From: Escherichia coli
GTDB taxonomy: Bacteria > Pseudomonadota > Gammaproteobacteria > Enterobacterales > Enterobacteriaceae
Length of the DNA: 64,000 nucleotides
Direction: 5' to 3' (one strand)
Assembly: GCF_001677475.2 (NCBI RefSeq)
Contig: NZ_CP015229.1
Shown here: positions 43,901 through 44,113 of the stretch, piece by piece
Numbering within the stretch: the first letter of the stretch is position 1
Layout: every line of letters begins with the position of its first letter
The notes under the pieces: generated by a model
The model's input: the letters and a program-made list of their open reading frames with translations, nothing else
Told to the model about the DNA's origin: nothing
Database searches by the model: none
Position numbers and translations under genes: made by a program

Positions 43901-44113
43901 CCGACTATAGACTATTCAGATTAACTACCGCACTCTATGTTGGGTTTATATCCATGTCAGGAAACAGTTCATTTGTGAATCCTGACACCTGACTATGACT
44001 GTCGCCCAGGGATAATCCACAACCGCTGGAAGCAGTCTCATTTCATCAGGATAAAACCGTAGAGTGCGATTGCGATGAATAATAAATACAGACTTATTAT
44101 TCCAGTCTGTTTT

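Follow-up and report, generated by a model that had tools for sequence, protein, structure and literature searches.

The 64,000-nucleotide (nt) stretch of Escherichia coli DNA analysed here (contig NZ_CP015229.1; hereafter the window) carries between yieH and phoU an AT-rich islet of effector-like genes, and within this islet lies a segment of 213 nt (43901-44113) that is almost certainly a relic of cbrB and cbrC, the genes with which the counterpart of this interval begins in K-12 (cbrB-cbrC-yieK-yieL-bglHBFG). The islet itself is already known as the Z5211-Z5214 locus, which was described as an alternative to the bgl islet and as type III of the bgl/Z locus (Sankar et al. 2009, PLoS Genet, PMC2646131); its genes were termed ORFans, with Z5211 and Z5214 being 50% homologous (PMC2646131), and Z5214 is named espY5' in the literature. 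In agreement with that locus, the islet of the window sits between the same two backbone genes, holds an espY4 gene (Z5211 type), a pentapeptide gene and espY5' (Z5214), has a guanine plus cytosine (GC) content of about 30% and belongs to a type found in about 20% of E. coli. What our analysis adds to the locus as published is a scar composed of remnants of three backbone genes (cbrB'-cbrC'-yieH') and a two-block structure of the islet. Both are absent from the defining paper, in the text of which a search found no mention of remnants, pseudogenes or a duplication, and from the RefSeq annotation of the genomes listed, as none of the ten islet-bearing genomes among those listed has any annotation beneath the match to the gap that holds the relic.

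An initial annotation, made from the sequence alone, had left the segment unassigned between a plus-strand gene pair and a yieH-like fragment. Its limits were accurate, since the segment starts directly behind the stop codon of the plus-strand reading frame and its right end misses the joint to the yieH fragment by no more than 10-15 nt; this fragment on the right is real, while the supposed gene pair is instead one frameshifted pentapeptide-repeat gene. No open reading frame (ORF) or repeat had been recognised in the segment, and indeed only ORFs of 31-49 amino acids (aa) overlap it, repeat families are missing, and nothing beyond a weak inverted repeat of 10 nt (44085-44113) was called. The observation that the segment is less AT-rich than the adjacent effector-like genes likewise agrees with our values, with a GC content of 40.8% compared with 25.3% for 43316-43900, 28.6% for the whole pentapeptide-repeat gene and 29.3% for the EspY5-like gene; that of yieH is 51.5%.

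Homology to cbrB-cbrC accounts for the entire segment except its first ~8 nt. A DNA profile built from the cbrB 3' end, the spacer and the cbrC region of five taxa (E. albertii, two Escherichia species, Pseudocitrobacter and K-12) matches the window exactly once, colinearly and on the plus strand, at 43891-44139 (nhmmer E 1.3e-26), with a high posterior over ~43910-44125 and without gaps from the cbrC start codon onwards. By blastn, ~3,500 islet-less E. coli genomes match the window at 44012-44122 alone, with 77.7% identity and inside cbrC (yieJ), the K-12 match covering cbrC nt 38-148 on the same strand, and a few genomes match 44129-44186, which in their case is located inside yieH. Across this stretch, corresponding to codons 13-50, the nucleotide identity to cbrC of K-12, E. 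albertii and Escherichia spp. amounts to 78-80% (blastn E 2e-12 to 3e-22). At the protein level, 22 of 36 positions are identical to CbrC residues 14-49 (blastx E 6e-12), including the conserved stretch QDKTVECDC, with TAA TAA standing in frame. The earlier suggestion of a gene remnant is thus borne out, both by the match to thousands of E. coli genomes (E 2e-12) and by the five-taxon profile.

Evidence is weaker for the upstream half (43901-44011), which aligns with the cbrB remnant, spacer and cbrC start of E. albertii with a score of 34, compared with 14.9 +/- 2.3 for shuffled sequences, none of 1000 of which reached this value, and it is colinear with the adjoining significant cbrC' match. 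Here, the C-terminal codons of cbrB (yieI) and its TAA appear to be retained in the expected position, followed by a spacer of similar length (50 compared with 48 nt), whereas approximately 97% of cbrB is gone, and the similarity, which is closest to E. albertii, is significant against E. albertii and through colinearity only. In an alignment of 225 nt, the relic shares 70.7% of its positions with E. albertii and 62-65% with each of the four remaining taxa, and no donor species with a cbrC clearly nearest to the relic stood out among the five matching taxa (76-80% for all).

Compared with cbrC/yieJ, which encodes the colicin E2 tolerance protein CbrC (PF03691, UPF0167), the relic shows the similarity and the genomic position of this family, lying at the yieH-phoU site on the same strand, downstream of yieH/cbrB and convergent with phoU, with codons 1-49 aligned without gaps; the intact frame of ~195 aa is lacking. 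About three quarters of the gene are gone, and what remains continues into a fragment of yieH; it was inactivated by the loss of the start codon (ATG to GTG, 43975-43977), four in-frame stops (43990, 43996, 44080 and 44083) and truncation, so that it is a pseudogene fragment unable to encode CbrC. Its 49-codon conceptual translation has a single Pfam match, PF03691, with E 0.012 and 15.9 bits, which is below the 25-bit cut-off. Two other alignments were dropped: a cbrC start at the ATG at 43994 with two deletions, because the multi-taxon alignment and the profile run ungapped from the GTG at 43975, and a 67-bp internal duplication of cbrC (43960-43974 and 44028-44043), because the first of these copies is the ribosome-binding region of cbrC and a divergent islet variant (locus L008) has simply dropped the 67 bp between the two short repeats.

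Table 1 Features of the yieH-phoU interval in the window and paired matches between its two paralogous blocks
Feature	Position	Strand	Remarks
adeP	37715-39052	minus	
yieH	39219-39884	plus	
espY4-type effector gene (Z5211 type)	40021-42446	minus	broken in the window
Pentapeptide-repeat, effector-like gene	42717-43900	plus	frameshifted; stop codon TAG 43898-43900; Pfam pentapeptide matches
Gap holding the relic	43901-44368		468 bp
cbrB' relic	43909-43924	plus	last five codons and stop, AGACTATTCAGATTAA (GAC TAT TCA GAT TAA; TAA 43922-43924); colinear part of the nhmmer match
cbrB-cbrC spacer relic	43925-43974	plus	50 nt (48 nt in K-12); includes decayed ribosome-binding region
cbrC' (yieJ') relic	43975-44121	plus	codons 1-49 of 195, ungapped
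Novel joint	44116-44128	plus	cbrC nt ~147 / yieH nt ~318; from three-way comparison and profile limits
yieH' relic	44129-44232	plus	nt 322-379 (44129-44186) and last ~33 nt with stop (44200-44232)
EspY5-like type III effector gene (Z5214 type)	44369-46888	minus	839 aa, intact; paralogue of espY4
phoU	47297-48040	minus	
Block match: yieH mid part	A 39550-39597; B 44139-44186	plus/plus	77%
Block match: yieH end and downstream spacer	A 39871-39969; B 44219-44316	plus/plus	81% (80/99)
Block match: espY patch 1	A 41693-41799; B 46092-46198	plus/plus	72%
Block match: espY patch 2	A 42023-42243; B 46449-46669	plus/plus	71%
Block match: espY upstream region	A 42536-42596; B 46981-47041	plus/plus	75%; last confirmed part of block B

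When K-12 CbrC was used to scan a single genome from each species, five Enterobacteriaceae loci were recovered. Four of the five (E. albertii, two Escherichia species and Pseudocitrobacter) have the order adeP-yieH-cbrC at this site, with phoU following directly and convergently after cbrC in three of them, and the three Escherichia loci contain an internally deleted cbrB between yieH and cbrC. In these islet-less loci, a few dozen nt survive at either end of cbrB (~5870-5960 of locus L013 in E. albertii; also L011 and L012), and from these end fragments it follows that cbrB is ancestral at the site and was lost repeatedly. At the right edge of the islet the backbone returns at 47224, which is 9 nt past the position of the E. 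albertii cbrC stop. Because site, orientation and order of the relic match those of the intact genes and the islet edge lies only these 9 nt past the end of cbrC, we take the relic to be backbone that was engulfed by the islet and not cargo. In this respect the wording of the initial annotation, which considered a remnant carried in with the island, is not supported, as cbrB-cbrC are native to exactly this site and the relic has kept both their orientation and their order. The interval 47224-47296 downstream of phoU, where the E. albertii backbone homology restarts and which marks the right edge of the islet, contains a palindrome, GCCAAATGCGGCGTAAAAGCCTTATCTGACCTAC, resembling the repetitive extragenic palindromic (REP) type.

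Immediately behind cbrC', the sequence changes over to yieH. Homology to cbrC stops at 44122 and homology to yieH begins at 44129 (yieH nt 322), the yieH' match itself (44122-44188) having an nhmmer E of 7e-11; depending on the yieH allele compared, 43-49 of the 58 nt at 44129-44186 are identical. The joint carries the heptamer TGCGTTG (44116-44122), and TGCGTYG is common to cbrC nt 141-147 and yieH nt 311-317. As only two pieces of yieH' are present, ~240 nt between them must have been deleted. The order cbrC followed by yieH occurs in no intact locus, where it is always yieH-(cbrB)-cbrC.

Tandem and segmental duplications of bacterial DNA can leave novel-joint scars at short microhomologies, and a comparison of the window with itself would account for the present joint in this way. 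Five colinear plus/plus matches connect a block A (39550-42596) with a block B (44139-47041) at offsets of 4,348-4,589 nt (Table 1), and EspY4 can be aligned end to end with the EspY5-like protein (32% identity, 51% positives, E 2e-113), so that colinear paralogous blocks flank a non-colinear fusion, as a segmental duplication would leave them. Furthermore, the 98-nt spacer following yieH' matches solely its islet-specific equivalent behind the intact yieH, and has no match downstream of yieH in islet-less loci (K-12, a B2 strain, E. albertii and other taxa). Since this spacer is specific for the islet, the duplication would have occurred at this very locus, at a time when espY already adjoined yieH. 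Fragments fused in non-native order, colinear paralogous flanks and a shared joint sequence of 5-7 nt are features held in common with microhomology duplication scars, whereas the present joint differs from these in being very old, heavily eroded and not clean, and in needing a later deletion.

When 5,426 complete E. coli genomes were searched with the gap by sensitive blastn, 1,089 of them (~20%) proved to carry it in full length, with 91-96% identity, and six aligned standard islets contain the same relic with the same stops in every case. The most divergent variant of the islet (locus L008; four complete genomes, e.g., L021) encodes a pentapeptide protein with 72% identity and likewise contains cbrC', but without the TAA TAA stops and with 67 bp missing between the repeats GGAAACAG..CATTT and GGAAGCAG..CATTT. 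In this variant (9190-10369 of L008, 5092-6269 of L021) yieH' and both ends of espY5 are deleted, and cbrC' abuts an effector pseudogene of 764 bp that corresponds to the middle of espY5. The fusion of cbrC' to an espY5 remnant in L008 and L021 as well indicates that the joint and the duplication predate the split of the islet variants.

Together, these data are compatible with the following history. At the ancestral site adeP-yieH-cbrB-cbrC-phoU, an AT-rich cassette of espY and the pentapeptide-repeat gene would have been inserted between yieH and the cbrB end. A segment of ~4.4 kilobases (kb), from yieH nt ~315 to cbrC nt ~147, would subsequently have been copied by illegitimate recombination involving the TGCGTYG microhomology, in the simplest case as a tandem duplication, producing the joint cbrC(1-49)/yieH(~106-221) and a second copy of espY. 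Later deletions would have taken the central part of yieH' as well as the whole stretch between, and including, the second copies of the pentapeptide gene and cbrC, and the two espY copies would have diverged into EspY4 and EspY5. The restart of the backbone at 47224 is in keeping with this history, as is the heptamer at the joint with a microhomology crossover. The data directly show how each piece is related by homology, the colinearity, the paralogy of blocks A and B and the occurrence of the relic in ~20% of E. coli genomes; we infer the order of these events, the part played by the microhomology and the lack of function. A copy-and-insert event into cbrC would give a scar identical to that of a tandem duplication, and the two mechanisms are indistinguishable. 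Overall, we consider it probable that the segment is a non-functional fossil of cbrB-cbrC forming the upstream side of the joint of an old segmental duplication of ~4.4 kb. This judgement blends the identity of the relic, which is close to certain, the absence of function, for which confidence is high, and the origin of the joint by segmental duplication in situ, which we regard as rather likely.

Several observations weigh against this interpretation. With regard to the relic, a five-taxon profile restricted to the upstream part has its best match in the window exactly at cbrB' and the spacer, yet with E 0.82, which by itself is not significant. At the joint, 4-6 nt beyond the heptamer are unexplained by a clean microhomology crossover; the 6 nt after the heptamer are GTTGAT, possibly a duplication of GTTG. 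The main tension concerns the effectors, as the protein identity of EspY4 and EspY5 is no higher than 32%, whereas the co-duplicated non-coding flanks show 77-81% DNA identity, so that one duplication event would require a much higher rate of evolution in espY than in these flanks. Comparison of strains gives 89-91% identity for the espY genes and 96% for the relic gap, corresponding to an approximately 2.5 times faster divergence of espY, which makes a single duplication plausible (an argument, not a proof). A search with the EspY5 protein, aimed at the sister status of EspY4 and EspY5, returned a list filled by near-identical orthologues and speaks neither for nor against it. Moreover, an allele preceding the duplication, in which the islet would be followed by an intact cbrC, was not found among the complete E. 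coli genomes, drafts and metagenomes being outside this search; all listed relic matches that extend from the end of the pentapeptide gene are islet loci of the standard or the L008 type, the types having been checked on examples. Homology of block B past 47041 is not significant, nor is a relic of the second pentapeptide gene in 47042-47223, where just an 11-mer lies at the right offset. Finally, 43880-44135 is predicted to fold far better than shuffled sequences on both strands (z -4.9 and -5.5), and such an unusual predicted fold is not what plain neutral decay would lead one to expect.

An alternative history, which we consider improbable although it is the strongest of the competing explanations, is that a different Escherichia-like lineage assembled the whole yieH-phoU locus including the already decayed scar, and that homologous recombination in the flanking core genes brought it into E. 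coli. In its non-coding half, the relic is far nearer to E. albertii than to K-12 or the other versions (score 34 compared with 16-20), the yieH alleles at this site are strikingly divergent, and the adeP-yieH flank falls into identity classes of 90-95% and 95-99% across E. coli, all of which would suit an import. The same applies to yieH', which is nearer to E. albertii and B2-type alleles than to the window's own yieH (49 compared with 43 of 58 nt), but a comparison over 58 nt is too short to be meaningful. However, inheritance of the Z locus was found to be clonal, a single recombinant apart, in the strains studied (PMC2646131), and the pentapeptide protein was found in E. coli records only: a search with this protein for a more distant islet in other species yielded named sources that were all E. 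coli, the most divergent being 72% identical. Even if the locus had been imported in this way, the relic would still represent backbone genes of the same site, namely those of the donor, and not cargo.

The predicted fold raises the question of whether the dead fragment was reshaped into a self-complementary element and co-opted as structured RNA or DNA, e.g., as a 3' untranslated region (3' UTR) that stabilises or terminates transcripts of the pentapeptide gene, or as a small RNA for the H-NS-silenced islet. The model comprises a long-range stem of ~20 bp (43929-43953 with 44049-44068) and three hairpins, among them GTCAGGA/TCCTGAC (43956-43986) and ACAGACT/AGTCTGT (44088-44110), and ~96% of the cells pair across seven strains. 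For the intact orthologues in E. albertii and K-12, the predicted folding is at the level of shuffled sequences (z +0.1 and +0.75), and the structure would therefore be derived. Nevertheless, none of 75 predicted pairs is compensatory in the seven strains, substitutions affect 30 of 150 paired and 26 of 107 unpaired columns (p 0.45), and single mutations break stems in several strains, in view of which we treat the fold as unselected at present. The hairpin at 44088-44110, with a 9-nt loop and three G-C pairs, is altered in three of the seven strains, and the L008 variant has lost the above-mentioned 67 bp from within the segment. Since both strands fold strongly, inverted repeats in the DNA are a likelier cause than a selected RNA, and the fold may have arisen by chance, by templated quasi-palindrome mutation acting on neutral DNA, or from a past role. 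In addition, an Rfam scan of 42000-46000 on both strands gave no match at E <= 1, no plus-strand terminator was called within the segment, and promoter-like sites are at the level expected by chance (8 compared with 6.7). Thus, co-option appears quite unlikely to us, and the segment is very probably without present function as a decayed stretch of cbrB-cbrC.

Judged by its position, the relic would form the 3' flank of the pentapeptide gene, the transcripts of which probably run through it into a long hairpin downstream of yieH' (44249-44316; arms 44249-44262 and 44297-44310). This hairpin, which has outer arms of 14 nt with 93% complementarity followed by a CTTTTC/CTATTC tract, is also found downstream of the intact yieH (~39901-39969). 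Having been copied with the block, it is a putative bidirectional terminator between convergent genes and would likely serve as the stop signal for transcripts of the pentapeptide gene and, on the opposite strand, of espY5. The only terminator-like site called lies here, outside the segment, on the minus strand at 44301-44286.

That the relic encodes a small protein is highly improbable. A chimeric ORF of 49 aa does span the cbrC'/yieH' joint in the window (44075-44224), with yieH' in its original frame, and the annotation of one other locus (L010) calls an equivalent gene, but its start is ATA in the aligned O157:H7 sequence (Z869, L005), NRZ14408 has lost 1 nt and with it the frame, and L008 lacks most of the region. 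Moreover, Pfam gave no meaningful match, and the ORF lies mostly outside the segment. A plain spacer without ancestry, the null expectation named in the initial annotation and seemingly in line with the blank RefSeq annotation, can practically be dismissed, because the segment has significant colinear homology to cbrB-cbrC and the intergenic region is conserved across strains.

Taken alone, the segment carries little weight, being one more unannotated pseudogene fragment and an evolutionary scar. As a marker, however, it suggests that the Z5211-Z5214 ORFan islet was assembled in place around the resident cbrB-cbrC, and that the EspY4/EspY5 pair most likely stems from a local duplication of ~4.4 kb and not from two separate acquisitions, which would provide a concrete and datable case of birth and decay of an effector gene at the polymorphic bgl/Z site of E. 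coli. Used as a neutral yardstick, the relic suggests an unusually fast evolution of the effectors. For genome annotation, it explains a blank gap of 468 bp in about a fifth of E. coli genomes.

Concerning the neighbouring genes, the pentapeptide-repeat gene is one gene split into two ORFs (42717-43340 and 43316-43900) by a net deletion of 4 nt near 43322-43337, that is, 3 nt at ~43322 and 1 nt at ~43337 relative to the intact 395-aa gene, to one version of which (4910-6097 of locus L001) it is 94.5% identical; it is intact in other strains. Similarly, espY4 is disrupted by a 1-nt deletion near 42241, which separates an N-terminal ORF of 90 aa (42174-42446) from an ORF of 704 aa (40021-42135). 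Two of the three islet genes are therefore inactivated in this strain. The espY5-like gene, intact in the window, is split or frameshifted in three other islet loci examined, O157:H7 Z869 among them.

The left flank 36500-40000 (yieE-yieF-adeP-yieH) reaches up to 98.5% identity to complete E. coli genomes among the records listed. The K-12 allele of yieH (7716-8381 of locus L003) shows 76-83% DNA identity to yieH of every other locus compared, including 80.7% to that of the window and 82.5% to that of the B2 strain, while identities of 85-97% prevail among those other Escherichia alleles themselves, which would indicate an ancient or imported allele next to the bgl/Z polymorphism. In the divergent promoter region between espY4 and the pentapeptide gene, a motif of ~23 nt, CTGTAAAAAAT(A/C)GCTCATT, occurs twice in inverted orientation about 100 bp apart (42542-42564 and 42646-42668), with a third copy upstream of espY5 (46987-47009), making it a candidate binding site for a common regulator.
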